Shown here: piece after piece, positions 3,517-19,330 of the stretch
Layout: each line of letters begins with the position of its first letter
Position numbering within the stretch: position 1 is the first letter of the stretch
DNA from: a virus
Taxonomy: Duplodnaviria; Caudoviricetes
Length of the DNA: 33,674 bases
Virus record (IMG/VR): IMGVR_UViG_3300007640_000118
Location: 1-33,674 of that record
Direction: 5' to 3' (one strand)
Position numbers and translations under genes: made by a program
Notes under the pieces: model-generated
What the model was told of the DNA's origin: nothing
Database searches by the model: none
What the model saw: the letters and a program-made list of their open reading frames with translations, nothing else

Positions 3517-3520
3517 CCAC

Positions 3521-3596: not shown

Positions 3597-3720
3597 CATA
3601 ACAAGTCATTGGACATCAGCGAGCCTCTTGAACCACATGGTTGGGGAGAGGTCGTGACCCACGCTTATGACCCTTTCGCAATAACTCTTTCCTACACACA
3701 CCAACCAACGGAGGGCTGTT

Positions 3721-4187: not shown

Positions 4188-4204
4188 CCTAACAGGAGGC
4201 TCAG

Positions 4205-4303
4205 ATGGAACTACCAATAGACCAACTCTTGCTAATTGGCGATGCCATCTGGGGCATCACCGTAATCGTAGCCGACATCCTTATGGTCGGCTGGGGAGCA
4301 TAA
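4205..4303 (+). CDS. Small hydrophobic peptide (32 aa)
   Basis: Not in ORF track. AGGAGG SD; MELPIDQLLLIGDAIWGITVIVADILMVGWGA; fills the gap exactly. Confidence 0.7.
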   Translation: MELPIDQLLLIGDAIWGITVIVADILMVGWGA

Positions 4304-4304
4304 C

Positions 4305-4550
4305 ATGACACACATCAACCGCACAAAAATCATCATCCCTTTCAACTACGAACGACCACCACTAAGAGTTCGTGTTGCAAAGGCTCTTGGCTACATCTCA
4401 ATCGGCATCATTGCCTACGCAGTCATTCTCTTGGCCGCCTTCGAGTTCATGGTTGGCTGTGGCACGACCACTTACAACGCCGATGGCACTTACTACACCA
4501 ACGAGTGCCTGTTCATACCATACGAGCCAGTTGAGGGGAGATGGAAATGA
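4305..4550 (+). CDS. Single-TM membrane protein (81 aa)
   Basis: GGGGAG SD; hydrophobic stretch ALGYISIGIIAYAVILLAAFEFMVG; two Cys in the C-terminal part. Confidence 0.8.
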   Translation: MTHINRTKIIIPFNYERPPLRVRVAKALGYISIGIIAYAVILLAAFEFMVGCGTTTYNADGTYYTNECLFIPYEPVEGRWK

Positions 4551-4747
4551 AGATACCAAAGGTTTATCTCAAAGACCAACTCATCAACAATAGCACTCAA
4601 GTCTTGAATGACATTGAGACCAGCCTGCAAAAGCATCTTGGTCACTACTTCCAATGGGAATGGCGTTCAGTTGTGGGTGACAACCCATACGAGCCGCCAA
4701 TGTGGTCGCTTCATATCTATGTAGAGAGGAAAGAAACCGATGAGTAA
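4547..4747 (+). CDS. Hypothetical protein
   Basis: ATGA overlap with the upstream gene, GGAG SD. Confidence 0.7.
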   Translation: MKIPKVYLKDQLINNSTQVLNDIETSLQKHLGHYFQWEWRSVVGDNPYEPPMWSLHIYVERKETDE

Positions 4748-4976
4748 CCATAACAAAATCAAATCCAGAACATTCGCTCGGCCTACTAAGGCGGTGACTG
4801 TCACGCTGACCGACAACTTTGAGGTCGGCGAGAATGTCTACGATGCCATGCTCTACCACATGGAGCAGTGTGTTAAGGATGGCGACCTCACTGGCTGGGA
4901 CTTTTATGTCGTCGAAGAAAGTGGATTTGGTTGGGAAGGTGAAACCCCATTGCCCATAGACGGAGTGCTGACATGA
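4740..4976 (+). CDS. Hypothetical protein (78 aa)
   Basis: GAGG SD; overlaps neighbouring ORFs in an operon-like way. Confidence 0.75.
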   Translation: MSNHNKIKSRTFARPTKAVTVTLTDNFEVGENVYDAMLYHMEQCVKDGDLTGWDFYVVEESGFGWEGETPLPIDGVLT

Positions 4977-5062
4977 ATGACACCACGCAAATCAAACGCT
5001 ATGCCGTTGAGGTATGCGTCCTCATCTTCCTTGCATGGGCTATGTGTCCATGCAACGGGTAA
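4973..5062 (+). CDS. Small hydrophobic peptide (29 aa)
   Basis: Not in ORF track. GGAG SD, ATGA overlap; MNDTTQIKRYAVEVCVLIFLAWAMCPCNG. Confidence 0.55.
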   Translation: MNDTTQIKRYAVEVCVLIFLAWAMCPCNG

Positions 5063-5526
5063 GAACATTCCGATATGTAGTCTATGACCAAGTGCATGAC
5101 TACGTTCGCAATGGGTGGGTGGTATCTGCGACATTCCCACCAAGCGTTCATCACTCGCAGTATTCACTAATCATGGAGAAACGGATGGCAGTTACAAAAG
5201 ACAGCCCCCTATATGGTATGGCCTGTAATCTGAATGACATCGAATACAGGCTGACCAACGAGTTCAGTTGCCAACCCCATACAGTTGGCGGTGAATTGAT
5301 AGCATCAGTCATCGGACTACGAGAGCAAGTAGATGAGATAAACAACGCTCTCACTGATGTCATGCCTCACCTTGCGGATATTATTGATTCATACCACGCA
5401 GACGAACAGCGTGACTACGAAGAAGAAACAGAAACCAACGGAGAAAAGCCCACCAGTCATATCTTTCTGTCCATTGATAAGATGGCTGACTTCTTTCATT
5501 GGATAGAGGATTTGTCAGATGTATAG
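5050..5526 (+). CDS. Hypothetical protein; start uncertain (5050 or 5185)
   Basis: Open frame with an internal GGAG SD before in-frame ATG 5185. Confidence 0.65.
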   Translation: MQRVRTFRYVVYDQVHDYVRNGWVVSATFPPSVHHSQYSLIMEKRMAVTKDSPLYGMACNLNDIEYRLTNEFSCQPHTVGGELIASVIGLREQVDEINNALTDVMPHLADIIDSYHADEQRDYEEETETNGEKPTSHIFLSIDKMADFFHWIEDLSDV

Positions 5527-5722
5527 CGTCTGGCTCATCGACAGAAATCATCAACCCCATCATGCCTGTGATGTCGATGGCGACAGCGTAGGCTACGAAG
5601 AGGTTGAGCAACTCGCCGCTTCACTCGTAACCGAATTGAACGGCGCACTCGCCCCCAACCTGACCAGTTGGATAGTCATTAACAACCAACTCACCACGAT
5701 AGATGAGGCTATCAGTGGCTAA
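5519..5722 (+). CDS. Hypothetical protein (67 aa)
   Basis: GAGGA SD, overlap with the upstream stop. Confidence 0.7.
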   Translation: MYSVWLIDRNHQPHHACDVDGDSVGYEEVEQLAASLVTELNGALAPNLTSWIVINNQLTTIDEAISG

Positions 5723-5752
5723 CACACACCAACCATTACGAAGGGAAACCGT

Positions 5753-7783
5753 ATGCTTACGAAAGCAAAAATCTTGGACTTCATTGTCCAATACAGGCGG
5801 CTGGATGGTAACACATCTCGCAACCTACTACGAAAGTTCGTTGCCGATAACTGGGACAGCCTAGTCGAGAACACGAACGCAAGACGCTCACTGACAGTTG
5901 CCTCTGGCATTAAGTTACGCAAGTGGATCGACAGTGTTGACCGCTGTGTCTTGCTGTCCCTCATTCACGCCGCACTCACTGACTACATGAAGTCTAAGGA
6001 CAGCGGACAGTTTGTCCACGACAGACGAGATGAGTGGTTCGACTTGTGTCTTGAGGCACTGAAAGACGAAACCAAATGCCACTTCAAACGACGAGGCAGT
6101 GGCAAATCTTATGGGTTCAACAAAGTGTTACATGACGACGACGCTGACCTCATCCGCACCATAGACAACGGCCTTGTCAATTTCGCCTACAACGAACCCT
6201 TGACCTTCAAGGACAAGACCAACCACACACCAACCAACACAGGAGAAAGACCCGTGAGTGAAGTTCTATACGCTAACACTTGCATCGCAATACTTAACCA
6301 AGAGCTAGTCGATCAGGGCTTGGCGCAACTTACCGACGCACCACAATTCCCCGACCCAGATGCTGTCAAAAGCATAATGACCCAGATGAACGCAGTCGGC
6401 ATGGCTTCGAGGAGTGACCCTGACAGGTTCATTGAGGCTGTGTCTGCATCGGTGCAACTGATGTCGCTCGGCAATGACTGGCAAACCATAGACCATCTGC
6501 TGTCGGATGCCACCAACCCTGACAACTTTGACACTGTGGCAATCAAACAGATGTTCAAAGAAGACGAGCATATACAGGCAGAGGCAGACGCCCAGCAAGA
6601 GACACGGCCAAAGCCTTCGTGGTCTATTGATCCGACACTCAAGCCAGCCATTGATGCACTACTCAAGCAGAACAACAACCTAACCTTCGACCAGATGGTT
6701 GACCAGTTCAATGAGCAAGTATCCAAAGTCATGGACTTGACCAACCAAGTCAACAGGCTGTCCAAGTCTGCAAGCAATGTCCCTGCCATGCCAACCGCTG
6801 GCGTTGACGATGACCTTACCTACGAGGTCGTCATGCAGAACGCTGGCAAGGTGTTCGGACGCAAGGTCAAAGCACTTGCCTTCGACATACCTACGCTAGT
6901 GTGGCGCAACGCTAACGGCGACGAGGTGCGGCATCCCCTGTGTCCTGATGTCGATGACAACTACGAGTTCAGACCTGACCACCTAATCAAGTTCCTGTCT
7001 GGTCACTTGTTCGGTCAGAACCTCTGGCTTCATGGCCACACTGGCACAGGTAAGACTACGTTAGCCGAGCAAGTCGCGGCTCGCATTGGCTTCCCTGTTC
7101 ACCGTCTCAACCTCGACAGTAACATCGAACGTAGTGACATGGTTGGCTCGAAAGAGTTGACAGTCGAGAACGGTGTGCCTGTCACGACGTATGTCGAGGG
7201 TATCCTACCACGAGCCATGCAACAGCCATCGTTCCTGATACTCGACGAGATGGACGCTGGCCAAGCTGATGTGTTGTTCACCATCCAACGTGCGCTAGAG
7301 AAGAAAGGTCTTGTGCTTACAGAGGACGGTGGCCGAGTGGTTCAGTCTCACGCACTGTTCCGATTCATCGCAACGGCCAACTCTCGTGGTCAGGGTGACG
7401 AGTATGGCTGGTATCAAGGCGTCCGCCCCATGAACGTCGCTACGCTTGACCGCTTCGGTGTGTTCATTGAGGTTGACTACTTAGACAAGACCACCGAGCA
7501 GAAGCTACTCACCAACAAGTATCCGACACTCAAGAAGTCTGACGCCGAAGAGATGTCACAGTTCGCAGTCGAGGTTCGGCAAGCGTTCAAGACTGGCGAG
7601 TTGTCCACCACCATATCACCTCGCGGCATGGATAGTCTGGTCATGTATTTCCTACACATGTCTGACCTCATGCCTGACCGCAAGACAGCACTCAAGAAAG
7701 CACTTGAGGTTGTCATCACTGATCGTGCGCCAGCAGATAGCACTCGCACTGTTATCGAAATGGCTGACCGCGTGTTTTCATAA
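5753..7783 (+). CDS. CobS/MoxR-like AAA+ ATPase with long N-terminal extension
   Basis: Walker A GHTGTGKT, Walker B LILDEMD, FRFIATAN sensor, 'ATLDRF' arginine finger, 'ISPR' motif; adjacent to a VWA gene. Confidence 0.9.
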   Translation: MLTKAKILDFIVQYRRLDGNTSRNLLRKFVADNWDSLVENTNARRSLTVASGIKLRKWIDSVDRCVLLSLIHAALTDYMKSKDSGQFVHDRRDEWFDLCLEALKDETKCHFKRRGSGKSYGFNKVLHDDDADLIRTIDNGLVNFAYNEPLTFKDKTNHTPTNTGERPVSEVLYANTCIAILNQELVDQGLAQLTDAPQFPDPDAVKSIMTQMNAVGMASRSDPDRFIEAVSASVQLMSLGNDWQTIDHLLSDATNPDNFDTVAIKQMFKEDEHIQAEADAQQETRPKPSWSIDPTLKPAIDALLKQNNNLTFDQMVDQFNEQVSKVMDLTNQVNRLSKSASNVPAMPTAGVDDDLTYEVVMQNAGKVFGRKVKALAFDIPTLVWRNANGDEVRHPLCPDVDDNYEFRPDHLIKFLSGHLFGQNLWLHGHTGTGKTTLAEQVAARIGFPVHRLNLDSNIERSDMVGSKELTVENGVPVTTYVEGILPRAMQQPSFLILDEMDAGQADVLFTIQRALEKKGLVLTEDGGRVVQSHALFRFIATANSRGQGDEYGWYQGVRPMNVATLDRFGVFIEVDYLDKTTEQKLLTNKYPTLKKSDAEEMSQFAVEVRQAFKTGELSTTISPRGMDSLVMYFLHMSDLMPDRKTALKKALEVVITDRAPADSTRTVIEMADRVFS

Positions 7784-7795
7784 GGGAGATAAGCT

Positions 7796-9967
7796 ATGAG
7801 AAAATCACAACGCAAAATCACATACATCCCTGACAGTGGCGAGTTAGATACCGCTTACTGTTCGGGTCGTGACTTGATGGATGCAACCAAAGCTGTTGTG
7901 TCTACGTTGTCACGCAATGCCAAAGCTACTGTCACCTTTGCTGGCGACGGTGCTTACACTGATGGCCAACATGTAGTGCTTCCTGCACTACCAGACAACG
8001 CCACTATCACCAAGCGTCAGGGTCTTGTGACTGGCGGCTATGCCAACCACGAGATGTTGCACAATGTCCTCACCGAGTTCAATGGTGAGACCGAGGAGAT
8101 GTGTCGTCGCTGGCACAGTGATGGCCGAGAACTTACGTCTGCACTGGCTAACGCTATGGAAGATGTGCGTATCGAGATGGGTGGCCGTGACCTATACAAC
8201 GGCCTGCCCAAAGCCATTGACCATACCAGTCACGAGGTCAACCAACAGTTCTTGGACAACTACGCTAGTGGTGACATCCCTGCCGATGCTGTGTCTGACT
8301 TCGGCCAGATCGGTGCTGTTGCCATCACATGGGAAGGTCGTCGTCGGCTAGGTTATCCATCCGACACCATGCAGAAATGCCTAGACCTATTGTCCCCCGA
8401 TGTTCGTCGCAAGGTTAACACCATTGTTGATGCTGTTCAGCACCTTGAGACTGGCGTTCGTGGTATGGGCGACATTGATACTGAGGCCGCGTATCGTGGT
8501 TGCAGAGAGTTACACAAACTTGCAGAGAGGATTGCAGATGACTACCAATCTCAACGTCGTAGAGGCGGCAACGGAAATGAAACCAACATCGACCTCGGCA
8601 CTGCCACAAATAATGAGCAAGCTGCTGGAGGAACAGGGCGCACCGCAGATGGCCAAGACAATGGCGATGCTCAACGAGAGGGAGATAAAGGAACTGCTGG
8701 AGGTTCTTCAAATGCAGATCCAACAAGCCTTACTGGAACTGGCGATCAAGGTTCTGGCAAGGGACAATCAGATAACCGCTCTCAAGAAACAGATAGCGGA
8801 ACTGAACAAGATGTAAGTAGTGGCGACCTTCGCTCTGGCGATGATAAGCCAAACACTTATGCACAATCTGATGGCTCTGTCGATACGTCGTGGGAACGTG
8901 ACAACTGCAAGGGTGTCATCACTGGCGAGTTGGTCAAGGCTCTCGACAAAGTAGTCGAGGATATACACAGCCAACGTATTGAGGGCGGCAAGCATACTGT
9001 CCTTACTCGTGACGCTGACTACTGGCAAGTCTCAAAGAAAGACAAGACCAAGTTTAACGACGGTCTCAAAATCAAGCGTTCTAGTAACTTGCAAGACGGT
9101 GACATAGAGTATGCCAATCGTCTCAAGCAGATGGGTAACAAGCTAGGCACGATGCGTCGCAAGTTGGAGCGAGCGTTGGTGTCACAGAAACGTAGTCGCT
9201 ACGCACCACGCAAGCGTCACGGTAGGCTGGACACAAACAAGCTGACCAACATCATCAGGTTTGACCCCCTCGTCTTCCGTCACAAAGTCGTCGATGACTT
9301 CATCAATACCGCTGTCTCTATCTGTGTTGACCTGTCTGGATCAATGCGTGGCAACGAGATCAGTCTTGCCACTGATTGCTCTATCGCTATTGCCGAGGCG
9401 TTGCAAGGCACTGGTGTTGAGTTGGAGATCACTGGCCACAATACGGCTGGCGCTAGTGTCATGTATCGTAGTGACCTTGGTCGTAAGTATCACCGCAATT
9501 GTGCCATTCGCATGACCATGTTCAAGTCGTTCGATACACCACTGCAACGTGCCAGAGGCACACTTGGCCAAATGCCATACGCTGTCGGTGCGGCCAACGC
9601 TGACGGTGATGCGTGGATGTATGCGGCTGACCGACTGCTTCAACGCCCAGAGCAACGCAAGATATTCATTGCCATGTCTGACGGTAGGCCAGCCTATCGT
9701 AACGACTACGGTGATGCGAGTAGCTACAAGCATACTCGTGATGTCGTCGAGTGGATGACGCTCAACGGCATTGACGTTGTGGGTATTGGCATCGGTGATG
9801 ATTGCGTCAAGCAGTTCTTCCCACGTTACGTTGTCGTGCAACGGCTTGATGATCTGAGCAAGCACGTCATGGATCAGCTTGGCAAGATGTTGCTGGGTGA
9901 ACGCTTCGTTGTTGATAACTCAGACCTCATCGCAACAGGACGCCGTGATGCCCAGACAGCCCGCTAA
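7796..9967 (+). CDS. CobT-like VWA-domain protein
   Basis: N-terminal HEMLH...NAMEDVRIE, G/D/S-rich linker, GRLD motif, MIDAS DLSGS and MSDGRP, VVGIGIG. Confidence 0.9.
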   Translation: MRKSQRKITYIPDSGELDTAYCSGRDLMDATKAVVSTLSRNAKATVTFAGDGAYTDGQHVVLPALPDNATITKRQGLVTGGYANHEMLHNVLTEFNGETEEMCRRWHSDGRELTSALANAMEDVRIEMGGRDLYNGLPKAIDHTSHEVNQQFLDNYASGDIPADAVSDFGQIGAVAITWEGRRRLGYPSDTMQKCLDLLSPDVRRKVNTIVDAVQHLETGVRGMGDIDTEAAYRGCRELHKLAERIADDYQSQRRRGGNGNETNIDLGTATNNEQAAGGTGRTADGQDNGDAQREGDKGTAGGSSNADPTSLTGTGDQGSGKGQSDNRSQETDSGTEQDVSSGDLRSGDDKPNTYAQSDGSVDTSWERDNCKGVITGELVKALDKVVEDIHSQRIEGGKHTVLTRDADYWQVSKKDKTKFNDGLKIKRSSNLQDGDIEYANRLKQMGNKLGTMRRKLERALVSQKRSRYAPRKRHGRLDTNKLTNIIRFDPLVFRHKVVDDFINTAVSICVDLSGSMRGNEISLATDCSIAIAEALQGTGVELEITGHNTAGASVMYRSDLGRKYHRNCAIRMTMFKSFDTPLQRARGTLGQMPYAVGAANADGDAWMYAADRLLQRPEQRKIFIAMSDGRPAYRNDYGDASSYKHTRDVVEWMTLNGIDVVGIGIGDDCVKQFFPRYVVVQRLDDLSKHVMDQLGKMLLGERFVVDNSDLIATGRRDAQTAR
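8538..8816 (+). CDS. Possible overprinted coiled-coil protein (92 aa) nested in the CobT-like linker
   Basis: Alternative frame; GAGG 7 nt before ATG 8538; amphipathic heptad-like sequence. Confidence 0.35.
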   Translation: MTTNLNVVEAATEMKPTSTSALPQIMSKLLEEQGAPQMAKTMAMLNEREIKELLEVLQMQIQQALLELAIKVLARDNQITALKKQIAELNKM

Positions 9968-10160
9968 ACTCAAGGGACTACGTATCCCTGCTGAGTGGTT
10001 CGGTCTTATCCCTGGCCGCCCACTCAGCTTTTGGAAACGTGTTCGTCGTCGTGTCAAAGACGCGAATGTTCGACTGCGTGATTACAACAAGGTCAAGGCA
10101 ATCGCTTTGGCTGAACCCTACCCTATCAAGAAGGAACTGGATTATGACAAACCATTCTAA
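9948..10160 (+). CDS. Basic hypothetical protein (70 aa)
   Basis: AGGA SD before ATG 9948; overlaps the ends of neighbours. Confidence 0.7.
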   Translation: MPRQPAKLKGLRIPAEWFGLIPGRPLSFWKRVRRRVKDANVRLRDYNKVKAIALAEPYPIKKELDYDKPF

Positions 10161-10662
10161 TGACATCGCTAAGACAATCGCTGACGCAGAGTTAGCCAAG
10201 TATGGCATCGGTGAGAAGCCGAAGCCCCAACCCAAGCCAGTGTTCAAGACTGTGCGGACTAAGCGCCCCACTACGCAGACGGAGTTGTTTAATATGCCAG
10301 ACATCCCCGACTTCCTGAAGCGCAAGACAGTCAAGTCCAACCACGAAGACCCAACCGAGACCATGAAGATTAAGCTGGGTGTTCGTGCCGCAGAGTTAGA
10401 GCGCATGATCAAAGACGATGCGTTCAAGATGCAACATGGCAAGGCTGATGCCGAGATAGGCAGACAGCAGTGGGATGAGTTCACGCAGACCATCGCCAAG
10501 TACGTCGGTCAAGCAATGGATGCTCGTGGTCTCGCATGGAAGTCAGGCCACGAGTGGTCGCTGGAACGTGGTGCTTTGGTTGACCACATCGCTACGTTCA
10601 TCAAAGACAATGGCGTGTTTCGTGATGCGTCAGGTCGCAACTACATCATCACAGTGAAATGA
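10144..10662 (+). CDS. Hypothetical protein (172 aa) containing DIPDFLKRK
   Basis: AAGGA SD before ATG 10144. Confidence 0.8.
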   Translation: MTNHSNDIAKTIADAELAKYGIGEKPKPQPKPVFKTVRTKRPTTQTELFNMPDIPDFLKRKTVKSNHEDPTETMKIKLGVRAAELERMIKDDAFKMQHGKADAEIGRQQWDEFTQTIAKYVGQAMDARGLAWKSGHEWSLERGALVDHIATFIKDNGVFRDASGRNYIITVK

Positions 10663-10675
10663 AAGGAGAATAAGT

Positions 10676-10816
10676 ATGCCTAAGTTCTTGGTAAAAATAC
10701 ATGCAGACATCGAAGTCGAAGCAGAGAATAAGGATGACGCAGAGGTCACTGCCGCAGAAATGTTTGACTTTGGAAGCGTAGATTTTGAGACAGAGGAGGT
10801 AAGAGAAGATGCCTAG
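10676..10816 (+). CDS. Small acidic protein, DpnD/PcfM-like pattern (46 aa)
   Basis: Not in ORF track. AAGGAG SD; MPKFLVKIHADIEVEAENKDDAEVTA. Confidence 0.75.
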   Translation: MPKFLVKIHADIEVEAENKDDAEVTAAEMFDFGSVDFETEEVREDA

Positions 10817-11009
10817 ATACAGAGTAGCTATTTGTTTTGAAGAGGCTGTCGTCATTGAGGTCGATGCCGACAGCGAGGATCATGCAGAGGAGTTGGCTCA
10901 CGAAATAGCAGAGCAACATGCTGGTTCTGAATACCCACCAGAATACAATGCCGACACAGTTCATCGGGATTATTTCTCACAGGATGCAAAGGAGATTACC
11001 AATGACTGA
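10809..11009 (+). CDS. Small acidic protein, DpnD/PcfM-like pattern (66 aa)
   Basis: GGAGG SD; YRVAICFEEAVVIEVDADSEDHAEELA. Confidence 0.8.
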   Translation: MPRYRVAICFEEAVVIEVDADSEDHAEELAHEIAEQHAGSEYPPEYNADTVHRDYFSQDAKEITND

Positions 11010-11166
11010 TCTGAGAGAAGTTATCGTTCGTGTTTACGTTAGCGCAGAGAGCGCAGAGACACAAAGCGAAGCATTGGATTTTGTTGAAGATGAGTTGAGT
11101 TGGCTATGCACATTAGACAACCCGCTTTTGGCTTTCACAATCGAAGAGGAAAAAGACAATGGATAA
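11002..11166 (+). CDS. Small acidic protein (54 aa)
   Basis: AAGGAG SD before ATG 11002; VIVRVYVSAESAETQSEA. Confidence 0.75.
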   Translation: MTDLREVIVRVYVSAESAETQSEALDFVEDELSWLCTLDNPLLAFTIEEEKDNG

Positions 11167-11599
11167 ATTAACCATGATCGAGAAGGTCGTAGCCACTATG
11201 GATGCGAAGGAAGTTCGGACACTGATCGTAGTGTGTAACGATAGGCTTGGCGAGTTGGGTGAGCCTGTGCATCAGAACGCACCGAAGCCACACACCACGC
11301 CAAAGATTAGGGTTCGTCGTCCATACTACTGCAAGGAGATACCTGACCCCTGCGTCGACAGTATGAAGACGTTTAAGCAAGTGAATACAAACTGGGTTAA
11401 CGACATCGTTAAGTTCGGCAAGCCATGTCTGTTGACGACGAAGGGTGCTGACCAGAAGCCGTGCTACATGATCGTCGTTCATTCGCCAGGGGATAACCTT
11501 GAGTTGCCGAATGGTTGCATCATCAACGACGTTAAGACTGGTGGTGTTTTCAGTAGCGTGTTCGATGCTGTCGCCAATAACACTTTGATGGCGGCATGA
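11159..11599 (+). CDS. Hypothetical protein (146 aa)
   Basis: GAGGA SD, overlap with the upstream stop. Confidence 0.8.
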   Translation: MDKLTMIEKVVATMDAKEVRTLIVVCNDRLGELGEPVHQNAPKPHTTPKIRVRRPYYCKEIPDPCVDSMKTFKQVNTNWVNDIVKFGKPCLLTTKGADQKPCYMIVVHSPGDNLELPNGCIINDVKTGGVFSSVFDAVANNTLMAA

Positions 11600-11634
11600 A
11601 AAGAAAAAGGGGTAGAGGAACCACCCTCTACCCC
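11599..11634 (-). terminator. Intrinsic terminator oriented on the minus strand
   Basis: 10-bp stem GGGGTAGAGG/CCTCTACCCC preceded on + by AAAAGAAAAA, i.e. followed by TTTTTCTTTT on the minus strand. No U tract on +. Confidence 0.8.
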
Positions 11635-11673
11635 AACACACACCAACGCACAAAAGAGAAGTTGCACGTCGAT
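11599..11673 (-). ncRNA. Candidate trans-acting antisense sRNA
   Basis: Minus-strand TTGTTG-17nt-TATATT (11708-11680) upstream and the terminator downstream; carries CUUCUCUUUUGUGCGUUGGUGUGUGU, complementary to the repeated leader motif plus SD. Confidence 0.5.
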
Positions 11674-11714
11674 AACGATAATATAATGCAACTAACGTGC
11701 CACAACAATATACC

Positions 11715-11743
11715 TTGAAGACATCTGCAATGTGTCTTACATT
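11715..11743 (+). promoter_or_regulatory. Candidate sigma70 promoter with overlapping inverted repeat
   Basis: TTGAAG-17nt-TACATT; AAGACA-N9-TGTCTT overlaps it. Confidence 0.5.
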
Positions 11744-11774
11744 TAATACACACACCAAACGCGAGGAGCTTATT

Positions 11775-12266
11775 ATGGAAGTGACAAAAGAATTGGAATA
11801 CGAAGATCAAATAAGATTGCTGACGCAAAGAGTTGATATGCTGGAAAACCTTTGCAAGTTATTGTCAAATAGATTGATTAGAGAGCCAGATCAAAGCCAA
11901 CAGGGGATACCACCACCACCGAAAACTTGTTGCCCGACTAATGATCTAGTGAAATACACACCAAAACAACATGCGACAATGCAAATGCTGGCGCTAGGCA
12001 AAAGCAATAAAGATATTGCACTTGTGCTTGAGGTGACAGAAAGCACTGCAAAGGTTCATGTACGTAGCGTGATGCAGAAGAAGAAATGTTCTAACCGACA
12101 AGAGGTTATGGCTGAGTATAAAATCACTATGTCTCAGTGTTCGGCAGAAGACTACCTAATTTATTCTGGTATCCCTAAAGACTGGGCGATACACCCTGAG
12201 AACTACCCCACACACACCACCAAACTGAGAGAGAGCTACCATGATAAAACTGGAAAAACGTCGTGA
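11775..12266 (+). CDS. LuxR/GerE-type HTH transcriptional regulator
   Basis: YTPKQ..MQMLALGKSNKDIALVLEVTESTAKVHVRSVMQK...NR matches the LuxR C-terminal HTH; GAGGAG SD before ATG 11775. Confidence 0.85.
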   Translation: MEVTKELEYEDQIRLLTQRVDMLENLCKLLSNRLIREPDQSQQGIPPPPKTCCPTNDLVKYTPKQHATMQMLALGKSNKDIALVLEVTESTAKVHVRSVMQKKKCSNRQEVMAEYKITMSQCSAEDYLIYSGIPKDWAIHPENYPTHTTKLRESYHDKTGKTS

Positions 12267-13251
12267 TGTCTGGCATATCGCTGGAACCCTAGCTGGGAAA
12301 CGGGTGCGTCAAAGCACCCGTATTCCTACATCCCACCCCGATGGAAGACGTATGGCAGAGCAAATGCGCTTGGACATTGAACGTAACATCCTGACGAGGA
12401 ACTTCAATCAGCCGACGAACAAGACTGTCGGTGATGCCATTGATGATTACCGTAAATGGAAACAGATAGAAGGTCGTCTGTCTCTGGACATGGATAGGAA
12501 GATTGATAAGCTGTCTGACTACTGGAGCAAGGTGCTGTTGACTGACATCACCACTCACAAGATACAGTCGTTCGTCTTCGACACCATGATGGGCTTACAG
12601 CCTAACAGTGTAAAGCGTTACCTCAACCAACTACGAGCCATCCTAAAGTATGCGGAAGAAAGCTACGGCTGGAAGTGTTGCAAGATACCCATGCCACAAG
12701 TTGATGATGCCAGAGATGTGCATCTGGATGAGGAAGAGGTTATCGCTGTGCTTGAGTTCTTCAAGACGAAAGAGCCTAAGTATTATCCCCACTTCGTCTT
12801 GTTGTTTGATACTGGCGCACGGCTTGGCGAGATGCTGAAGCTGGAACGCTCGTCGTTTGTCGGCGGCGTCGTCAAGATCAGACGAGTTAACAAGATGAAG
12901 CAGAAGACATTGACGAGAGATGTTCCGATGACTGACGACGTTAAGGATATGGTTGTCAATCACTGGCCAAGCAGAGGGTTGGACATCTGGAATGACAATC
13001 GGAGTGCATCAGCCACGCTTAACAAAGCACTGAAGAGAGCCTGTGCATATTGCACAATCAAGCCCATAAGGGTGCATGATGCACGACACACCTTTGCTTA
13101 CCTAACGGCAAAAGCTGGGGCAGATTTAGGTGACTTGCAATATCTTTTGGGACACGCTGACATATCCATGACCATGCGGTACAGAGGTTATGTGCAAAGC
13201 AGGGCAAGGGATTTCGTGCTGTCATCCAGACGCCAACTCGCACATGCCTGA
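12241..13251 (+). CDS. int: Tyrosine integrase
   Basis: TGARLGE (Arg I), HDARHT (H-x-x-R), LLGH...TMRY (catalytic Tyr); N-terminal arm-binding-type beta region. Confidence 0.95.
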   Translation: MIKLEKRRDVWHIAGTLAGKRVRQSTRIPTSHPDGRRMAEQMRLDIERNILTRNFNQPTNKTVGDAIDDYRKWKQIEGRLSLDMDRKIDKLSDYWSKVLLTDITTHKIQSFVFDTMMGLQPNSVKRYLNQLRAILKYAEESYGWKCCKIPMPQVDDARDVHLDEEEVIAVLEFFKTKEPKYYPHFVLLFDTGARLGEMLKLERSSFVGGVVKIRRVNKMKQKTLTRDVPMTDDVKDMVVNHWPSRGLDIWNDNRSASATLNKALKRACAYCTIKPIRVHDARHTFAYLTAKAGADLGDLQYLLGHADISMTMRYRGYVQSRARDFVLSSRRQLAHA

Positions 13252-13456
13252 CACGTTTCTGACACACGGCAACTTTGATTTTTATTCTAAGTTGTTGTAT
13301 TTGTTTTGTATTCGTAGTCATTTACTGTGTCCGTCCCGGGGAGCCACAACACATCTAAACCCATCCTTCGTGGTGGGTTTTTGTTTTTTTACAACGAGTT
13401 ACAAGACCTATCGTTGTGTCCCCTTTGACATCTCTGACACGTTATTGTCACGTTTC
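13249..13456 (+). other. attP with tRNA-Asn-like core and arm-type repeats
   Basis: Core GTCCGTCCCGGGGAGCCA (13329-13346) resembles a tRNA T-stem/acceptor/CCA 3' end. Direct repeats TG(A/T)CACGTT at 13249, 13435 and 13446 (variant at 13260) flank it, with IHF-like TACAANNNNTTA sites between. Confidence 0.85.
13357..13390 (+). terminator. Intrinsic terminator downstream of the att core
   Basis: AAACCCATC-CTTCGT-GGTGGGTTT followed by TTGTTTTTTT. Confidence 0.85.
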
Positions 13457-13538
13457 TGGCAAGCAAAAATGCTTGATAGATATGATAAGATATATATATG
13501 TTGATATACACACACCAACCTATAAAAAGGAACTTGAT

Positions 13539-13943
13539 ATGGTTACTCACAAAAAACACGTTTTCATTGACGGTGACGCTATTACTGCAATCCAGTCTCG
13601 CCTTGAGAGGGGTGAGCATAAGTCTTCGATAGCACAGTCGTTTGGTATCTCGACTTCGACAGTCACGAACTTCGATCCGAACTCTAAAAATTATCGCCCA
13701 GACCTTGTGCGTATTCGTAAAAATTCTTCTGCTAAATTTGTTAAGAATGGCTCTACAGTGAGCGACAACACTGGGAAGACCGCTGTTGTGGTGAACGACA
13801 ACACTGGGAAGATCAGCGACAAGGCGAAGGAATACATCGACGCTTGTTGTATTGTGTTTGATAAGTCGCGTCGTCAGATCATGGACGAAATGGTCAAGGC
13901 TTGTAAAGCGCTTGGCGCTTGTAACGTCCATGACGGTAAATAA
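13539..13943 (+). CDS. HTH-domain protein
   Basis: RGEHKSSIAQSFGISTSTVTN HTH; leader motif plus AAGGA SD before ATG 13539; TTGATA at 13473 with an AT-rich -10 region. Confidence 0.75.
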   Translation: MVTHKKHVFIDGDAITAIQSRLERGEHKSSIAQSFGISTSTVTNFDPNSKNYRPDLVRIRKNSSAKFVKNGSTVSDNTGKTAVVVNDNTGKISDKAKEYIDACCIVFDKSRRQIMDEMVKACKALGACNVHDGK

Positions 13944-14247
13944 TCCAAAGGGCGGTAGGCCGCAACGGACAGGCTTGTCCGTTGGGGCTGACACCCTCAG
14001 AATAAATCCCATTCTCAAGCAGACCTTTGCGCTTATCGACGAAGGCGGTTTCAATCTACATGATCTGGAACTGGCATCTGGTCTTGGCTATGCCACAATC
14101 AAACGGTGGATGGACAAGAACGGTGCGCGGTTGGATAGCGTACAGGCTGTGCTTGAGGTGATGGGATACAGGCTGGAGATAGTGAAACATGAACATATTT
14201 CACCTGTCGATGTGTCCCAAAAAGTCGGCAAAATATCTGTGCGATAA
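13930..14247 (+). CDS. XRE-family HTH protein
   Basis: LHDLELASGLGYATIKRW...ARLDSVQAVLEVMGYRLEI pattern. Confidence 0.75.
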   Translation: MTVNNPKGGRPQRTGLSVGADTLRINPILKQTFALIDEGGFNLHDLELASGLGYATIKRWMDKNGARLDSVQAVLEVMGYRLEIVKHEHISPVDVSQKVGKISVR

Positions 14248-14701
14248 GCACGTCTCTAAGATGTTTACCGAGACAGGCCAGATGCTGTCTTACGCACACT
14301 TTATACATGGTAGCTGGATGGATGGTATGTGTGCGCCTTACAGTAAGGCTGGCAAACTGTTGAGCCATGTCAAACACCCCATGACTAAGTGGGTTGCAGA
14401 GACGGAAGCCAACTACCGTTGGACATACCAGCTTGCTTGTGGATTGATGAATGAGCATTGGCTACGGTTTCATACCACGCACAACACTATGTATCGGATG
14501 CACTGCTTCGTTGATTCACCACCAAACATACCAAAGGGCGGCCTCACTAGGCCGCCTTTGTGTATGCCTGATGCTTACCACTCAGACAACCATGTAGCAT
14601 CTTATCGTGCGTATTATTGCCATGAGAAATCTCACTTTGCTAAGTGGGTTCACTGTACCCCTGTGCCGTTTTGGTACGAGGTTATGCAGTCTCTTCAATA
14701 G
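14189..14701 (+). CDS. Pyrimidine dimer DNA glycosylase (DenV/endonuclease V-like)
   Basis: MNIF...CDKHVSKM..ET.QMLS, H.KHP.T.W, NY.W, P.CMPD.Y, YRAYY..EK..FAKW signature. Confidence 0.85.
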   Translation: MNIFHLSMCPKKSAKYLCDKHVSKMFTETGQMLSYAHFIHGSWMDGMCAPYSKAGKLLSHVKHPMTKWVAETEANYRWTYQLACGLMNEHWLRFHTTHNTMYRMHCFVDSPPNIPKGGLTRPPLCMPDAYHSDNHVASYRAYYCHEKSHFAKWVHCTPVPFWYEVMQSLQ

Positions 14702-14978
14702 GTGCGCCTAACACCTCAAATGAACTTGAAGATAGCGTGTCGCCCAGCATGGCGGCACTGATGTAGCTTAGATAAACTCTTGTCTCTTTGTCGAAATGGA
14801 TGGCGATGCCGTGAGGCATCATCTCTATGATGGGTGACACGATCTTTGCGGCGTCGCCATTAGGCGATAAAATCCCTATCGTCGGCTTCATCGCTAGGCG
14901 CATGTCCGTCTCTACGTCGGCTACTCCGTCCATCGCTTCGTCCAGCAACTCTTGTGCAAAGGTCAATGAATAACTCAA
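14682..14978 (-). CDS. Hypothetical protein, start uncertain (14978/14933/14903)
   Basis: Last ORF of the minus-strand block, converging on the glycosylase gene. Confidence 0.5.
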   Translation of the reverse strand: MSYSLTFAQELLDEAMDGVADVETDMRLAMKPTIGILSPNGDAAKIVSPIIEMMPHGIAIHFDKETRVYLSYISAAMLGDTLSSSSFEVLGAPIEETA

Positions 14979-15411
14979 CAGGCAATCTCCCGCGCATGAA
15001 GTTGATGGATGTGCAGATTAACTGCACGTTGTCCTTACAGTATGCACCGTCAGGGTCAATGCGGTCTATGCTTATGTTCTGGCTCAACCACTTATCGTCG
15101 GTGGCTGGCTGTCCGTAGTACAAGACTAGGCCAGTCATAGCGCAGACACCGCCTTGTTCCCGATAAAGCTGAACGCAATCGGCTAGGGTCAAGTCGAACT
15201 GTACGCCTTGCTTACGACGTGCGCTCTTCAGTTGGGAAACCTTACGTGCTAAGTAGCCTTGCAAAGAACGCTGTGAGTTGTGCCTGTGTTGTACACGACA
15301 CACTTTGCACTGGGTTTCTCTTTTTCGTTTACCGCTCCTGCTGTCGTTCCAGTACCAGTATTCGTCTGAGTTTTTTGTTTTTCCGCAGGAGCGGCAGACA
15401 TGCCGCTCCAT
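14860..15411 (-). CDS. HNH-like endonuclease with N-terminal Zn finger
   Basis: CxxC...CxxC; QGGVCAMTG; SIDRIDPDGAY..DNVQLIC..IN.M. Confidence 0.75.
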   Translation of the reverse strand: MERHVCRSCGKTKNSDEYWYWNDSRSGKRKRETQCKVCRVQHRHNSQRSLQGYLARKVSQLKSARRKQGVQFDLTLADCVQLYREQGGVCAMTGLVLYYGQPATDDKWLSQNISIDRIDPDGAYCKDNVQLICTSINFMRGRLPVELFIDLCTRVAGRSDGRSSRRRDGHAPSDEADDRDFIA

Positions 15412-15422
15412 TGGATAAGGTG

Positions 15423-15590
15423 TTAGCCCCGACGGATACCGCGACCACGAGCCGTTTTATTGGCCATGTTGCGGATGCCAGTTGCAGAGCCAGATGCCGC
15501 AGAGGTTGTGCGGCCAGCACGCTTGGCTGTCTTGTTCATTTTATCTGCGGTCTTCTTCTTTGCCGCAGTTGTACGACGATCATAAGCCAT
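15423..15590 (-). CDS. Small highly basic protein (55 aa)
   Basis: Not in ORF track. AAGGAG SD; MAYDRRTTAAKKKTADKMNKTAKRAGRTT...RGRGIRRG. Confidence 0.8.
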   Translation of the reverse strand: MAYDRRTTAAKKKTADKMNKTAKRAGRTTSAASGSATGIRNMANKTARGRGIRRG

Positions 15591-15605
15591 TAGAGATCTC
15601 CTTTG

Positions 15606-15959
15606 TTAGCTTGCGATGCTTTCCAAATTGTGTATGAAGAACAGGGCGTAGTCGTCCGCAACGTGTCCATCATACGTTTCAAACAGGTCAGACCTGTCAC
15701 CGTCAGGGTGATGGCCTTCTACCCATACCCCGTGTCCCGACGAGTTGAGTTCTTCTATGTAGTCTAAGAACTCTCCGACACTCATCTCGTCGAAATCTGT
15801 CCAAGCCATTACCGTTATCTCATCTCGGTCTGGGTCTTGGCAGATGTCAGTTACACGCCTGACATCTGATGTTATTATTACGTCGGCCTGCCGCTGTAAT
15901 GTGTCGGCAAGCCAAGCGTTAATCTCTTCCTTCGCTAGAGCTTCCGTGTTTTTTTCCAT
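15606..15959 (-). CDS. Acidic hypothetical protein
   Basis: TGATG coupling to the upstream gene; Asp/Glu-rich. Confidence 0.75.
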   Translation of the reverse strand: MEKNTEALAKEEINAWLADTLQRQADVIITSDVRRVTDICQDPDRDEITVMAWTDFDEMSVGEFLDYIEELNSSGHGVWVEGHHPDGDRSDLFETYDGHVADDYALFFIHNLESIAS

Positions 15960-16225
15960 CAGCACTTCCACCGACGACGAGCCGCGCAGATGCGCTTCTC
16001 TGGTGTCTTTGAACAGTTGATTTTGTGCATCTTCATCTGTCCCTTCGAGCGTGAGCAGTAAGAGCTACGTCGTTTACCGCCCCCAGGTTGTGGAGCCTTG
16101 AGCTTCGTCTTGCAGGCTCGGTTGTACTTGGCACGACCTTTTGCTGTGAGACCAGCACCCTTACTTGCTGGGAGCTTTTCGCCTCGGCCAACAGATAGAG
16201 AAACGCTACACCTCTTCTTCGCCAT
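15959..16225 (-). CDS. Basic phage protein resembling DUF6321
   Basis: GLTAKGRAKYN...LKAP...RRSSYCSRS.G...RRWKC pattern recalled from aquatic phages. Confidence 0.7.
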   Translation of the reverse strand: MAKKRCSVSLSVGRGEKLPASKGAGLTAKGRAKYNRACKTKLKAPQPGGGKRRSSYCSRSKGQMKMHKINCSKTPEKRICAARRRWKC

Positions 16226-16718
16226 TGTTGTTCACCACCACTAGCTTTAGTTTTTTTCTACGCTCTGATAGTGACACAACCTTCTCTTCATCGTCGTCCA
16301 TGTCGGGTGTGAACTCGATGACAACTTCCATCGGCTCTTCTGTTTCGATACCCATTTCCCACAGGAATGTTTTGTATAGTGGAAGCCAGTCGCCAAGACG
16401 CATGACCACTAGGCTTTCGCTGGTGTCCATTCGGTTCTTGCGGGATATGACAACTGGTATGTCGGGGGAACGAGACTTCTCTATGCCACGCTCGGCCTGT
16501 TCCATTGCGGCATAGGGGCTGAACTTCTCTGTGCGCTTCGCTTCTACCCATACAAAAGGTGTGCCGTTTAGGTCTGGTAGTCCACCGCCAAATGGGTTGC
16601 TTCCCCCACCTGACAGCGGCGCTCGCTGAACCCTTTGTTCGTCGCCGAACAGCCAGTGGTTCAACCACTTGGCAAGCTCGCGTTCGTACCCGTCGCCTTT
16701 TCTCTTTGATCTAGTCAT
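16206..16718 (-). CDS. Holliday junction resolvase-like PD-(D/E)XK nuclease
   Basis: SKRKGDGYERE, PDL, VEAKR motifs. Confidence 0.8.
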   Translation of the reverse strand: MTRSKRKGDGYERELAKWLNHWLFGDEQRVQRAPLSGGGSNPFGGGLPDLNGTPFVWVEAKRTEKFSPYAAMEQAERGIEKSRSPDIPVVISRKNRMDTSESLVVMRLGDWLPLYKTFLWEMGIETEEPMEVVIEFTPDMDDDEEKVVSLSERRKKLKLVVVNNNGEEEV

Positions 16719-17152
16719 CTCTTCACACCTTTCCCGAATATGAACTTTGGCCTGCCGCCTTTGGGTGACGACGAGGCAGAGAACTCGTAGCTCTCTTTGC
16801 GTTCTGACATAGGAGTTGTGTCGGCTACGTCGGAAAAGATGTAGTCGTCGGACAACCCCAGATTTTCATTGATTGCTGTGCATCTGTCACAGATGTACTG
16901 CCACTTGGGCAGGGTGACAGACTTCTTGCACTTGAGGCACTTGCGTTCCCAAGTAGTCTGTTGTGATTTGTGAGACGGGGCGATTGCGTATTTCGCTCCG
17001 TCAAATTCAGCAAGCCCCTCTCGGACGAGTATTCGTTTCAGTGTGTCGGTGCAGACTTCCATGTAGGCGGCCATCTGCTTATATGTGTATCCATCATCCA
17101 GCATTTCAGAGAGTGCTTGCCTATCTCTTTTCGAGATCGGCTTCTTGTGCAT
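16715..17152 (-). CDS. HTH plus Zn-ribbon protein (putative regulator)
   Basis: GAGGTG SD before ATG 17152; GYTYKQMAAYMEVCTDTLKRIL HTH; CLKC...CDRC. Confidence 0.75.
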   Translation of the reverse strand: MHKKPISKRDRQALSEMLDDGYTYKQMAAYMEVCTDTLKRILVREGLAEFDGAKYAIAPSHKSQQTTWERKCLKCKKSVTLPKWQYICDRCTAINENLGLSDDYIFSDVADTTPMSERKESYEFSASSSPKGGRPKFIFGKGVKR

Positions 17153-17220
17153 ACTCACCTCTGCTGTTTTGTAGGAGCGCACCCGTCAGGGGTGCGCGAT
17201 GTTTCCATACATTTTCTCTC

Positions 17221-17307
17221 TTGACCCAGATTCCTCCCAATCAGTATAATCCTCGACAGAGGTCAATGACAGTCATAGAGCCAAGCCCTAGACGGGCTTG
17301 TCTCTTT
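17221..17307 (+). promoter_or_regulatory. Antisense-oriented sigma70 promoter followed by a terminator-like hairpin
   Basis: TTGACC-18nt-TATAAT (17221-17250); hairpin CAAGCCC-TAGAC-GGGCTTG then TCTCTTT (17282-17307). Confidence 0.55.
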
Positions 17308-17323
17308 ACTGAACTGTTCTGAA

Positions 17324-19330
17324 CTATACTGTACTTGACCTCAACCATTGCTCTACCTCATATCGTGGGATAGACAATGAACGACTTACATCCTCAACCC
17401 CCATCGACTTGTGAATGTGTAACCATACAGCCTGTTGCTTCGGGCTGGGGGTATGCACAACATATTCGCTTCCGTCCGCCAGCCGTTCCGCCCAACCTAT
17501 GTAGTAGGTGCGGTGCAACTCTGTCTGAGTACGAACTTTCCCAAAGGAAATTTGTTGAACCATCTTGAGGCGGCTGTCTGCTTCTAGCTGTGCCTCAAGG
17601 TAACTCGTAGCTGTATATTCTGTGCCATCGAATGACCGCACAGTTACATCTGCGTCGTGTAACCCAGCCTTTGCTCTTGATACGTTCTTGTCACGGAACA
17701 CCTGTGTCACCATGACCTGTGTATCAATGTCGGTAAGCTGTGCAGTTGATCCAGCCTCACGACCAAGACCACCCTCACCTGGTTTGTTGCGGTGGTGAAC
17801 CAAGACTACGCTAGACTTGTACTTAGTACGTACAGATTTGGCGACGTGGTTTACCTTGAACCATTCGGCGGCGTTTGCTTCTTCCAATCCACCGAAGGCG
17901 TTGCGAACTGTGTCAATGACTACGATGTCTGGCTTGATCACATCCAACCAGTCACCAAGTAGTCTGAACCCCTGCTCCGTACCTAAGTTCATCTCACCAC
18001 CATCGTCTGCTGATATAAGTGATGGCGACCACATGTTAAAGTTCTCACCGCAATCCCCAAACATGTTAAGAAAATTGCGAAATCTGTACAGAACAGTGCG
18101 GCTTGGGTTGTCGTAGTCTAAATACAAAACCTTCGCAGGCTTTGAACCAAAAGGCCCAAAGCTCTCGTTGCCAGAAGCCATGCTAACCAACATACCCTGC
18201 AAGAAGAACGACTTGCCGTGGCCGTTGTAGCCAACAACCTGTGTGATTGTTTCTGATGGGATAACTGGGTCTGACCAGTAGCTAGTTTCGCCAAGTGTTT
18301 CAATCAACCTGTCGATGTCACTGCCACGAATAGGAACAAGACGACCTAGCTTGGGAGCTTCCTTCGCCGTGACTATGCGATTACCATCAGCATCGTAGTC
18401 ATCAGGGTACGAGCGACGATCCATATCAATGACACTGCGTATCTTCTGTGTCAGCCAAGCCTCTGTCTGGTCTGTTGTGTACCCAGTGTCGTCGAAGAAC
18501 TCGTCGTGGAACTTACGAACAGCAGTGTAAAGTGTTCCGTTAACGATGCCTTGACGTACCTTCTGCCCAATATAACGAACCATCCATACGTCAGTGCCAT
18601 CACCTTCGCGTAACTTGTGGCCTAAGTGTGCTACACGACGCTTCACTTGGTCATACACTGGCAGTGTATCTTCTACCTGTGTGATTTTTACATTGGCTAA
18701 ACTGAGATTGCCGAAAGCGAACTCTCCAACTTGCGGCGCTTGAACCGTGTCAGGTGCGCCCTTCCACACAAAGTCTTCCATGTCGTCGAGACTTAGGCCG
18801 TATCCTACTTCCATGTGGTATATGTGCTGGACAGAGTTGTCCTTCATCTTGATTGATGGTGGCATTACAACGTACCCACCATCACCACGAAGGTCTAAGC
18901 CCTCGACTTCTGGCCAGTTGCGTGTGACGCCGCCGACGTTGTTGGCAAACCGTTGTCCATGCTGTGGGTGGGCAAAGTAAAAGTGTTTGCCGCGAGCGGT
19001 ATGAACCACAAACGGTGATGTCAGGCTATGTTTCTCTGCGTACTCAACAGATTGTTGGTTGTCGCAATCAAGAACAATGACGCCGCTTATCGCACCTGTC
19101 ACCAGAGCGATGTTAAAATTTGGAACCACGTTTCCACTGTCTGTACGAACACCATTATCGAACCAGTCATCCACCTCTTCTATGGTGGTTGATTGCGTCT
19201 GGTATTTCTTCCAGCCAATCAGTGGCTTCTTGCTCTGAAGAGAGAGGGGGATGATTGTCCACCCTCTCTCAACGGCTTCTACTGCCGCATTATGTAGCGC
19301 CTCACGCCACTTCTTCATCTCTTCGTTCAT
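17324..19330 (-). CDS. Bifunctional primase-polymerase (Prim-Pol) fused to RecA-like AAA helicase
   Basis: GW.IIPL...KKPL..WK, NIALVTG, VLDCD, TARGKHFYF, DLRGDGGYVVMPPS; Walker A GYNGHGKS, IVVIDT, LVHHRNK. Confidence 0.92.
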   Translation of the reverse strand: MNEEMKKWREALHNAAVEAVERGWTIIPLSLQSKKPLIGWKKYQTQSTTIEEVDDWFDNGVRTDSGNVVPNFNIALVTGAISGVIVLDCDNQQSVEYAEKHSLTSPFVVHTARGKHFYFAHPQHGQRFANNVGGVTRNWPEVEGLDLRGDGGYVVMPPSIKMKDNSVQHIYHMEVGYGLSLDDMEDFVWKGAPDTVQAPQVGEFAFGNLSLANVKITQVEDTLPVYDQVKRRVAHLGHKLREGDGTDVWMVRYIGQKVRQGIVNGTLYTAVRKFHDEFFDDTGYTTDQTEAWLTQKIRSVIDMDRRSYPDDYDADGNRIVTAKEAPKLGRLVPIRGSDIDRLIETLGETSYWSDPVIPSETITQVVGYNGHGKSFFLQGMLVSMASGNESFGPFGSKPAKVLYLDYDNPSRTVLYRFRNFLNMFGDCGENFNMWSPSLISADDGGEMNLGTEQGFRLLGDWLDVIKPDIVVIDTVRNAFGGLEEANAAEWFKVNHVAKSVRTKYKSSVVLVHHRNKPGEGGLGREAGSTAQLTDIDTQVMVTQVFRDKNVSRAKAGLHDADVTVRSFDGTEYTATSYLEAQLEADSRLKMVQQISFGKVRTQTELHRTYYIGWAERLADGSEYVVHTPSPKQQAVWLHIHKSMGVEDVSRSLSIPRYEVEQWLRSSTV

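Follow-up and report, generated by a model that had tools for sequence, protein, structure and literature searches.

Why should a strong terminator and a candidate promoter face the minus strand in a gap among plus-strand phage genes? A sequence-only reading of this locus had proposed that a single antisense small RNA (sRNA) made here silences many early genes at their ribosome-binding sites. The window, which is the whole stretch of DNA analysed (33,674 nucleotides, a 33.7-kb fragment), comes from a temperate, CRP-810-like phage. The CRP-810-type gene set of cobS-cobT, luxR, integrase, and prim-pol is present in its conserved order, as are genes for terminase, CobT/vWA, Sak4, a Cas4-like nuclease, and lysis. 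Among annotated phages, the integrase is matched best by Roseobacter phage CRP-810, in which the gene order is the same. No match to annotated phages was found by blastn with positions 11000-13600. In the CRP-810-type family, most members carry an integrase, luxR was found in 107 of 251 genomes, and the function of cobS is described as uncertain (PMC11288001, main text). Integrases related to that of the window were found in Rhodospirillales and Paracoccaceae MAGs, so the host is likely alphaproteobacterial. DNA of the window is present in freshwater, mollusc, sediment, marine, and urban metagenomes.

The cassette lies in the gap 11600-11774, where it overlaps no start region. The minus-strand terminator that had been noticed there was confirmed (Table 1). 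It was the first listed in a terminator scan of positions 1-18000, and the U-tract behind the hairpin is absent from the plus strand. An RNA of about 75 nt containing the proposed seed also fits the coordinates. Folding of 11599-11675 gave a z of -6.9 against 200 shuffles, part of which is accounted for by the terminator. The minus-strand promoter is less secure. TTGTTG-17-TATATT is present as had been claimed, but a sigma-70 consensus scan lists neither this site nor the predicted luxR-integrase promoter, both of which are below its threshold. The 44-nt 5' module folds at -13.7 kcal/mol on the minus strand vs -1.7 on the plus strand, on which the motif copy is predicted to be mostly single-stranded between hairpins. 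The seed is only partly exposed in the predicted fold, as half of it is buried in the 5' hairpin but the loop and tail are free. The sole RNA run found (X20) has no cover over 11088-12967 and is uninformative for the cassette.

Table 1. Features of the window that bear on the cassette and its predicted targets (target energies in kcal/mol, ranks by whole-RNA cofold)
Feature	Position	Strand	Details
Predicted 75-nt sRNA	11599..11673	-	+1 ~11673; contains no AUG; from folding and promoter pattern
Intrinsic terminator and U-tail	11599..11634	-	stem 11634-11609, 11 pairs; 10-nt U-rich tail
Single-stranded 7-nt G/U tail, predicted toehold	11635..11641	-	from folding
5' hairpin, 12-13 bp including 5 G-U pairs	11642..11673	-	RNA nt 1-32; 3' arm is first half of seed
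Pyrimidine loop CUUCUCUU, anti-Shine-Dalgarno, 8 nt	11654..11661	-	unpaired probability ~0.9
Inverted repeat	11661..11704		arms 11661-11669 and 11696-11704; L120 has an inverted repeat of other sequence at the equivalent place
-10-like hexamer TATATT	11680..11685	-	17-nt spacing from TTGTTG
-35-like hexamer TTGTTG of predicted sRNA promoter	11703..11708	-	matches -35 at 3/6
Predicted luxR-integrase promoter TTGAAG-17-TACATT	11715..11743	+	+1 ~11750; below scan threshold
Operator-like palindrome GTGT(A/C)T-N8-A(T/G)ACAC	11732..11751		overlaps -10 and +1 of luxR-integrase promoter
LuxR/GerE HTH regulator, 163 aa	11775..12266	+	PF00196
Tyrosine integrase, 336 aa	12241..13251	+	PF00589, phrog_1
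CobS-like AAA+ ATPase, 676 aa	5753..7783	+	phrog_249, PF07728
7-mer copies preceding starts	3696, 4183, 5724, 6225, 11750, 12212, 13510	+	
7-mer copies in coding DNA	3321 (exact copy), 11290, 11956, 13086	+	no SD and start
Predicted target: integrase leader, inside luxR 3' end	12209..12236	+	rank 1/49, -21.7
Predicted target: internal in-frame cobS start region (GTG 6254)	6223..6250	+	rank 2/49, -17.7
Predicted target: codons 1-8 of 81-aa ORF 4305-4550	4306..4329	+	rank 3/49, -17.4
Predicted target: leader of 134-aa HTH-like gene (13539-13943)	13507..13533	+	-16.7
Predicted target: cobS leader	5720..5748	+	-16.7; best genome-wide duplex after self
Predicted target, weaker: luxR leader	11747..11770	+	-12.0
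Predicted target, weaker: leader of 62-aa ORF 3721-3909	3693..3716	+	-11.1

The seed of the predicted RNA is complementary to a C/A-rich box that recurs in the window. The 10-mer ACACACCAAC has six exact copies, every one on the plus strand. When one mismatch is allowed there are 11 copies, again all on the plus strand, where 3.07 +/- 1.83 are expected; 11 copies were reached in one of 100 shuffles. The 7-mer ACACACC occurs 12 times on the plus strand and once on the minus strand. One of the 12 is in the cassette, seven precede a start codon with a Shine-Dalgarno (SD)-like stretch, and four are in coding DNA without an SD. The box is placed approximately 27-32 nt ahead of the start codon. The cassette had been taken for the only motif copy not followed by a gene. 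This is not the case, as the exact copy at 3321 is within an ORF and is followed by neither an SD nor a start, and the copies at 11290, 11956, and 13086 are also coding. The target strings that had been quoted for 6224, 13508, and 5722 are all present, but the supposed leader at 6224 is internal to the CobS ORF. At 6223-6256, a strong SD and an in-frame GTG inside cobS could give a 509-aa form that lacks a 167-aa N-terminal part. This internal box and start are absent at the aligned region of the L132 cobS. A box variant with a strong SD was also seen at 4183-4303 on the plus strand, before an unlisted 32-aa hydrophobic ORF (ATG ~4205), with predicted binding of only -7.9.

Which genes could the RNA reach? 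In a whole-RNA cofold against 49 start regions (median -4.7), the top seven were all motif genes, with terL just below them (-11.0). The same seven lead an accessibility-corrected scan of 47 start regions (-16.3 to -11.7; next -9.3). In a genome-wide duplex scan, eight of the 10 best non-self duplexes are at start regions, seven flagged by the script and the integrase leader by inspection. In a control, the seed of the window was run on the relative G001, and none of its 10 best duplexes were at start regions. Several target mismatches are G-U pairs. Flipping the 8-nt G/U seed in silico cost 7-13 kcal/mol on the top seven targets. Replacing the loop cost 1-7 kcal/mol over the same seven, and about 4-7 kcal/mol on integrase, cobS, the HTH-like gene, and luxR. 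The HTH match of the gene at 13539-13943 is below the Pfam cut-off. The site at 4306..4329 had not been proposed before, and it pairs with a part of the sRNA that other targets do not match exactly. Motif-bearing leaders thus top the interaction ranking, as had been predicted, but the ranking is in part a circular one, the box having been recognised by sequence likeness beforehand. Because the targets were partly known in the window, only relatives give an independent test.

An integrase alignment search that covered 26 of 64 database parts gave at least 80 loci, and a narrower integrase alignment over as many parts returned the same 80, so the sample is a subset of the family. Of 43 family loci listed, all but L122 gave an integrase hit, and these 42 were scanned for minus-strand terminators; several of them hold little upstream DNA. 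A minus-strand terminator stands in the gap before luxR or the integrase at seven of the 42 loci, chosen by position: the window, L120, L132, L133, L145, L360, and L361. The window, L120, and L133 are related, and L360 and L361 are distant. L121, L126, L127, and L131 are repeats of L120. L123 (identical to the window) and L124 and L125 (near-identical) were not counted as independent. L125 carries a different, 72-bp longer small-ORF stretch at 1400-1630, between the 207-aa and 82-aa genes, with its cassette unchanged.

The full layout of hairpin, pyrimidine loop, G/U tail, and terminator was found in five of the seven loci; L132 and L145 are less regular. A layout descriptor, written after the positives were seen, misses these two and adds L139 (plus strand, 12062). 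It matches 4 of 204 background terminators vs 6 of 131 in family loci. It is thus position and not rate that is the signal. The promoter pattern TTG-N3-(16-18)-TA is present in six of the seven, and in five it places +1 no more than 1 nt from the first base of the hairpin. The empirical chance of the pattern is 0.012-0.039 per 9-nt window. L120, L133, L360, and L361 share TTG-N3-17-TA in identical register. The 5' module folds better on the minus strand in six of seven loci, although any strand rich in G and U tends to fold easily. In L120, where LuxR and integrase have 50% and 67% identity to the window, the cassette is likewise upstream of luxR. Its box differs from that of the window and pairs in its related terminator are altered; a G-U hairpin with a pyrimidine loop and a TTG-17-TATA site in the same register are also present. 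Related terminator stems with changed pairs were found in L120, L132, and L133. In L132 and L133 there is no LuxR hit, yet the cassette precedes the integrase, at 146-209 nt from the integrase match.

In an integrase tree of 33 rows, the seven cassette loci are all in one 16-row clade (100/100) and none are in the 17-row clade with CRP-810. L129, the closest integrase relative (77%, sister to the window), has neither luxR nor the cassette before its integrase. The five best cassettes barely align. A MAFFT/RNAalifold consensus recovers the terminator but not the 5' hairpin because these sequences align so poorly. A covariance model from the five likewise held the terminator only, and it found its training set and, weakly, L132. 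The evidence for the predicted shared structure is therefore a set of individual folds and not formal covariation. Further relatives were not recovered by other routes. A DNA-pattern scan of viral contigs gave 118 loci, mostly chance matches, none with cassette context. In two further pattern scans (one mis-spaced, 40 loci), the cassette was found among 151 loci only in L120-type contigs. A single-protein LuxR search and a LuxR alignment against genome contigs found nothing, and Rfam had no match at the cassettes of L133, L145, and L360. A leader peptide on the plus strand was tried and rejected; short ATG minigenes are present in four copies and in neither the window nor L120.

Different elements were also seen in this part of the family. 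L135 (1895-2030), L136 (700-840), L139 (9360-9500), and L140 (4075-4200) have another minus-strand element before luxR, with a hairpin, a U/G-rich stretch, and a long G-U-containing hairpin, and no U-tail. Exact matches of 10-12 nt connect this variant to the genome's own start of integrase (L135), cobS (L139), and cobT (L140); L136 has none. In L139, a hairpin with a CU-rich loop and then a terminator are on the plus strand downstream of the integrase (12020-12100), with no convincing target.

The cassette is a real, conserved non-coding element. Its predicted targets were compared among the relatives. In L120, the top two of 32 start regions in cofold are the HTH gene (rank 1) and integrase. 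In L360, the top three of 40 are integrase, cobS, and cobT, and in L145 the top three of 17 are cobS, cobT, and integrase. L132 has cobS at rank 2 of 38 and L133 has integrase at rank 6 of 27. L361 has the full layout, yet none of the start regions in its locus is a predicted target (best -5.4), and a second copy of a 14-mer was not found in its genome. Integrase, the CobS-like ATPase, and the HTH gene, which had been among the targets first claimed, thus recur in relatives, but luxR is not conserved as a target, being outside the top eight in L120, L145, and L360.

Each RNA was also ranked on its own leader among orthologous leaders from the rest of the family, many of which are C/A-rich as well. 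The own cobS leader ranked 1, 2, 1, and 1 of 15 (Fisher p 0.009). The own integrase leader ranked 1, 2, 21, 12, 6, 1, and 25 of 35 (p 0.018), a mixed result, and the cobT control ranked 8, 8, 4, and 3 of 20 (p 0.22), which is not significant. These p-values treat the loci as independent, which they are not fully. With a uniform 28-nt seed and duplex energy, cobS ranked 1, 6, 1, and 1 of 14 and integrase 3, 2, 8, 2, 15, 1, and 8 of 34. The own integrase leaders of L132 and L133 rank 21 and 12 of 35 with RNA structure vs 8 and 2 of 34 by duplex energy alone. Seed-shuffle z values are weak (L132 -1.6, L133 -0.4, L360 -1.2, L361 +0.7). C/A-rich leaders are also present in relatives without a detected cassette, such as L122 and L138, and the L145 RNA is predicted to bind the L122 cobS leader at -25.9. 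In L360, 16 consecutive nt of arm and loop perfectly complement the integrase from the SD through the AUG. The integrase site is within the luxR 3' end, and the stretch encoded there differs between the LuxR of the window and the L120 type in step with the RNA. As judged from these sequences, the apparent co-variation of RNA and targets reaches into protein sequence. Covariation of seed and target in related phages, which had been suggested as a check, is thus supported for cobS, but it is mixed for integrase. The original idea of one sRNA pairing over the C/A box and SD of several genes gains from the layout in divergent relatives, from the predicted transcription start at the hairpin in five of seven loci, and from this co-variation, but its target list shifts.

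Other explanations share parts of this evidence. The RNA could be made but act mainly in cis, through perfect pairing or transcription collision with read-through toward luxR-integrase as in OOP, its likeness to leaders being the trace of a duplicated leader. No plus-strand terminator is listed between ORF 11159-11599 and luxR, and the perfect duplex of the sRNA with such a transcript is computed at -85.8 kcal/mol. The plus-strand copies of L133, L145, L360, and L361 also keep a leader-like SD and ATG. But cis action needs no loop or seed that tracks distant cobS leaders, as the ranks of 1, 2, 1, and 1 of 15 suggest, and a separate promoter for luxR-integrase is predicted downstream of the cassette; this explanation appears unlikely. 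The box could instead enhance translation or be bound by a protein (SAS- or stoperator-like), with the copy at 11636 a relic leader and the terminator an insulator of early genes from antisense transcription. ACA motifs alone are described as enhancing translation (PMC3879156). The four 7-mer copies in coding DNA and the C/A-rich leaders of cassette-less relatives would also fit, and at luxR and the HTH gene the box abuts an operator half-site and the predicted +1. However, this explanation leaves four things without an account: the promoter-hairpin-terminator geometry of five barely alignable loci, the G-U-dependent minus-strand folding, the gene-by-gene matches beyond the box (4306, and the 16-mer of L360), and the different shared word in each phage. 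It is considered quite improbable.

The RNA might also be real but directed mainly at host mRNAs, as its anti-SD loop and G/U tail would fit many strong leaders, in which case the phage matches are secondary. In L361, which is in a Paracoccaceae MAG, the layout is kept and no target is predicted nearby, and the phage sRNAs PreS and DicF are described as targeting host mRNAs (PMC12197685). The preference for own-phage leaders in the window, L120, L145, and L360 goes against this, and it seems very improbable. To go by the folding and pairing models, the 75-nt RNA probably acts in trans to block translation of several genes of its own phage, namely those for integrase, the CobS-like ATPase, and the HTH protein, and a few small early ones.

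How could such a repressor work? Host RNA polymerase would start at ~11673 on the minus strand and stop at the terminator. Pairing with the C/A box and SD would begin at the free G/U tail and the anti-SD loop. The hairpin, weakened by its G-U pairs, would then unzip to give a 20-25-bp duplex that masks an ACA-type enhancer and the SD, as GcvB does. Use of Hfq is suggested by the U-tail.

The predicted luxR-integrase promoter stands back to back with that of the sRNA. A similar plus-strand promoter was found before the integrase in L132 and L133, and none was found in the other four loci. The operator-like palindrome that covers the -10 of luxR-integrase is the sole exact match in the window, and CRP-810 and many relatives likewise carry it ahead of luxR. 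It is likely the operator of the LuxR-like repressor, judging by its position and sequence. Weaker copies in the window (2330, 13492, and 19581) have two mismatches each, and about four such copies are expected by chance. In CRP-810 (L001), copies were seen at 1707, 7736, 9569, and 16971. Those of the window and CRP-810 are at roughly corresponding control points, namely the early region, luxR, behind the integrase, and the replication divergence. Since the promoters are back to back and the palindrome covers the luxR-integrase -10, repressor binding there would favour the sRNA over the luxR-integrase promoter. In a lysogen, the luxR-integrase message would then yield repressor but little integrase, and leaky early transcripts would be mopped up. 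Upon induction, read-through early mRNA with a perfect copy of the site would soak up the sRNA. Its most likely role is, tentatively, that of a second, post-transcriptional lock on lysogeny. The direction in the life cycle is the weakest step, as the same pairing would also fit a role in lowering the output of integrase and early genes in the lytic phase.

Two other sites in the window were observed. The region 13242-13462, between the integrase and the HTH gene, has repeated CTGACAC words and is likely attP. A stretch at ~13325-13345 is common to L120 and ends in what is presumably the likeness of a tRNA 3' end. No tRNA near attP was found in seven of nine loci, nor in L120 or L124. Behind an ssb-like gene, at 21431-21500 on the plus strand, there is a terminator with a G/U lead-in that resembles that of the sRNA (18.6 bits, E 0.63). 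From this likeness the two terminators may possibly share an origin.

The candidate resembles some known regulators. GcvB is described as pairing just upstream of the SD with C/A-rich, ACA-containing enhancers of several mRNAs (PMC3879156). By computation, the G/U seed of the candidate likewise pairs with C/A-rich stretches that precede the SD. GcvB is encoded by the host and regulates amino-acid transport, whereas the candidate is 75 nt, is phage-encoded, and adds an anti-SD loop. An Rfam scan of the window to E=1 gave two weak unrelated hits, neither at the cassette, and no GcvB match. The candidate works like GcvB but is not a member of the GcvB family, as there is no Rfam hit. The immunity RNAs C4 of P1/P7 and CI of P4 are short and maintain lysogeny by acting in trans, at more than one site, on the transcripts of their own phage; they are processed and act within one operon or leader. 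Rfam gave no C4 or CI match at the window's cassette.

The cis-antisense RNAs sar of P22, OOP and aQ of lambda, and STnc6030 of BTP1 are described as steering lysis/lysogeny or immunity, with sar blocking translation initiation (PMC12197685). Each is encoded opposite a single target. In contrast, the candidate is not encoded opposite the start or 3' end of its predicted targets, which are five to seven dispersed start regions 0.1-8 kb away, with imperfect pairing. VpdS of phage VP882, PreS of lambda, and 24B_1 of an Stx phage are phage-encoded and trans-acting with effects on the life cycle; VpdS alters phage and host mRNA levels, and 24B_1 is proposed to repress an antirepressor (PMC12197685). 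By that review's description, they differ in having no shared, co-evolving box in many of their own genes and no integrase-leader targeting.

The Start-Associated Sequences of cluster K mycobacteriophages are asymmetric, one-orientation repeats by the start codons of non-structural genes, for which the authors left open an RNA or a protein partner (PMC3203893). Their likeness to the C/A box is in orientation and placement only. They have another sequence, a 13-bp consensus overlapping the SD that the window box does not share, and belong to phages whose hosts are of another phylum; the available text reports no cognate RNA (PMC3203893), whereas the candidate RNA shares a genome with its box. 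CRP-810 shares the cobS-cobT, luxR, integrase, and prim-pol order with the window but is itself in the cassette-less integrase clade, and no cognate cassette was detected in its genome. Its early genes have a start-adjacent word of their own in common, in the leaders at 479, 695, 929, 1205, 1827, and 6037: a purine-rich SD, then AGCC or similar, ahead of the ATG. The main text of the paper on CRP-810-type phages has no matches for 'sRNA' or 'promoter' (PMC11288001). In the literature covered, chiefly open-access main texts, no sRNA is reported in CRP-810-type phages, nor an sRNA of any phage that governs a co-evolving regulon made up of several of its own genes.

From the predicted structures and pairings, the cassettes likely form a new family of trans-acting, GcvB-like translational repressors of phages' own genes, and most described phage regulatory RNAs are either cis-antisense to one gene or aimed at host mRNAs. 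A wider picture is conceivable, although doubtful. One large CRP-810-like clade might run a self-directed RNA regulon, in which the sRNA evolves together with a box that marks the starts of integrase, CobS, and other early genes and extends even into luxR and cobS codons, with a bistable lysogeny lock and decoy release. If L135, L136, L139, and L140, with their differently built element, are counted in, 11 of the 16 clade members may use this logic. If true, the arrangement would solve the problem of repressor and integrase sharing one message, and it would flag CobS, whose function is uncertain, as a protein that needs to be kept off. Start-associated repeats in phages would gain an RNA-based explanation that can be tested, and the control of lysogeny would gain a level of RNA regulation, in which sRNA and targets evolve together throughout a widespread family of aquatic phages.
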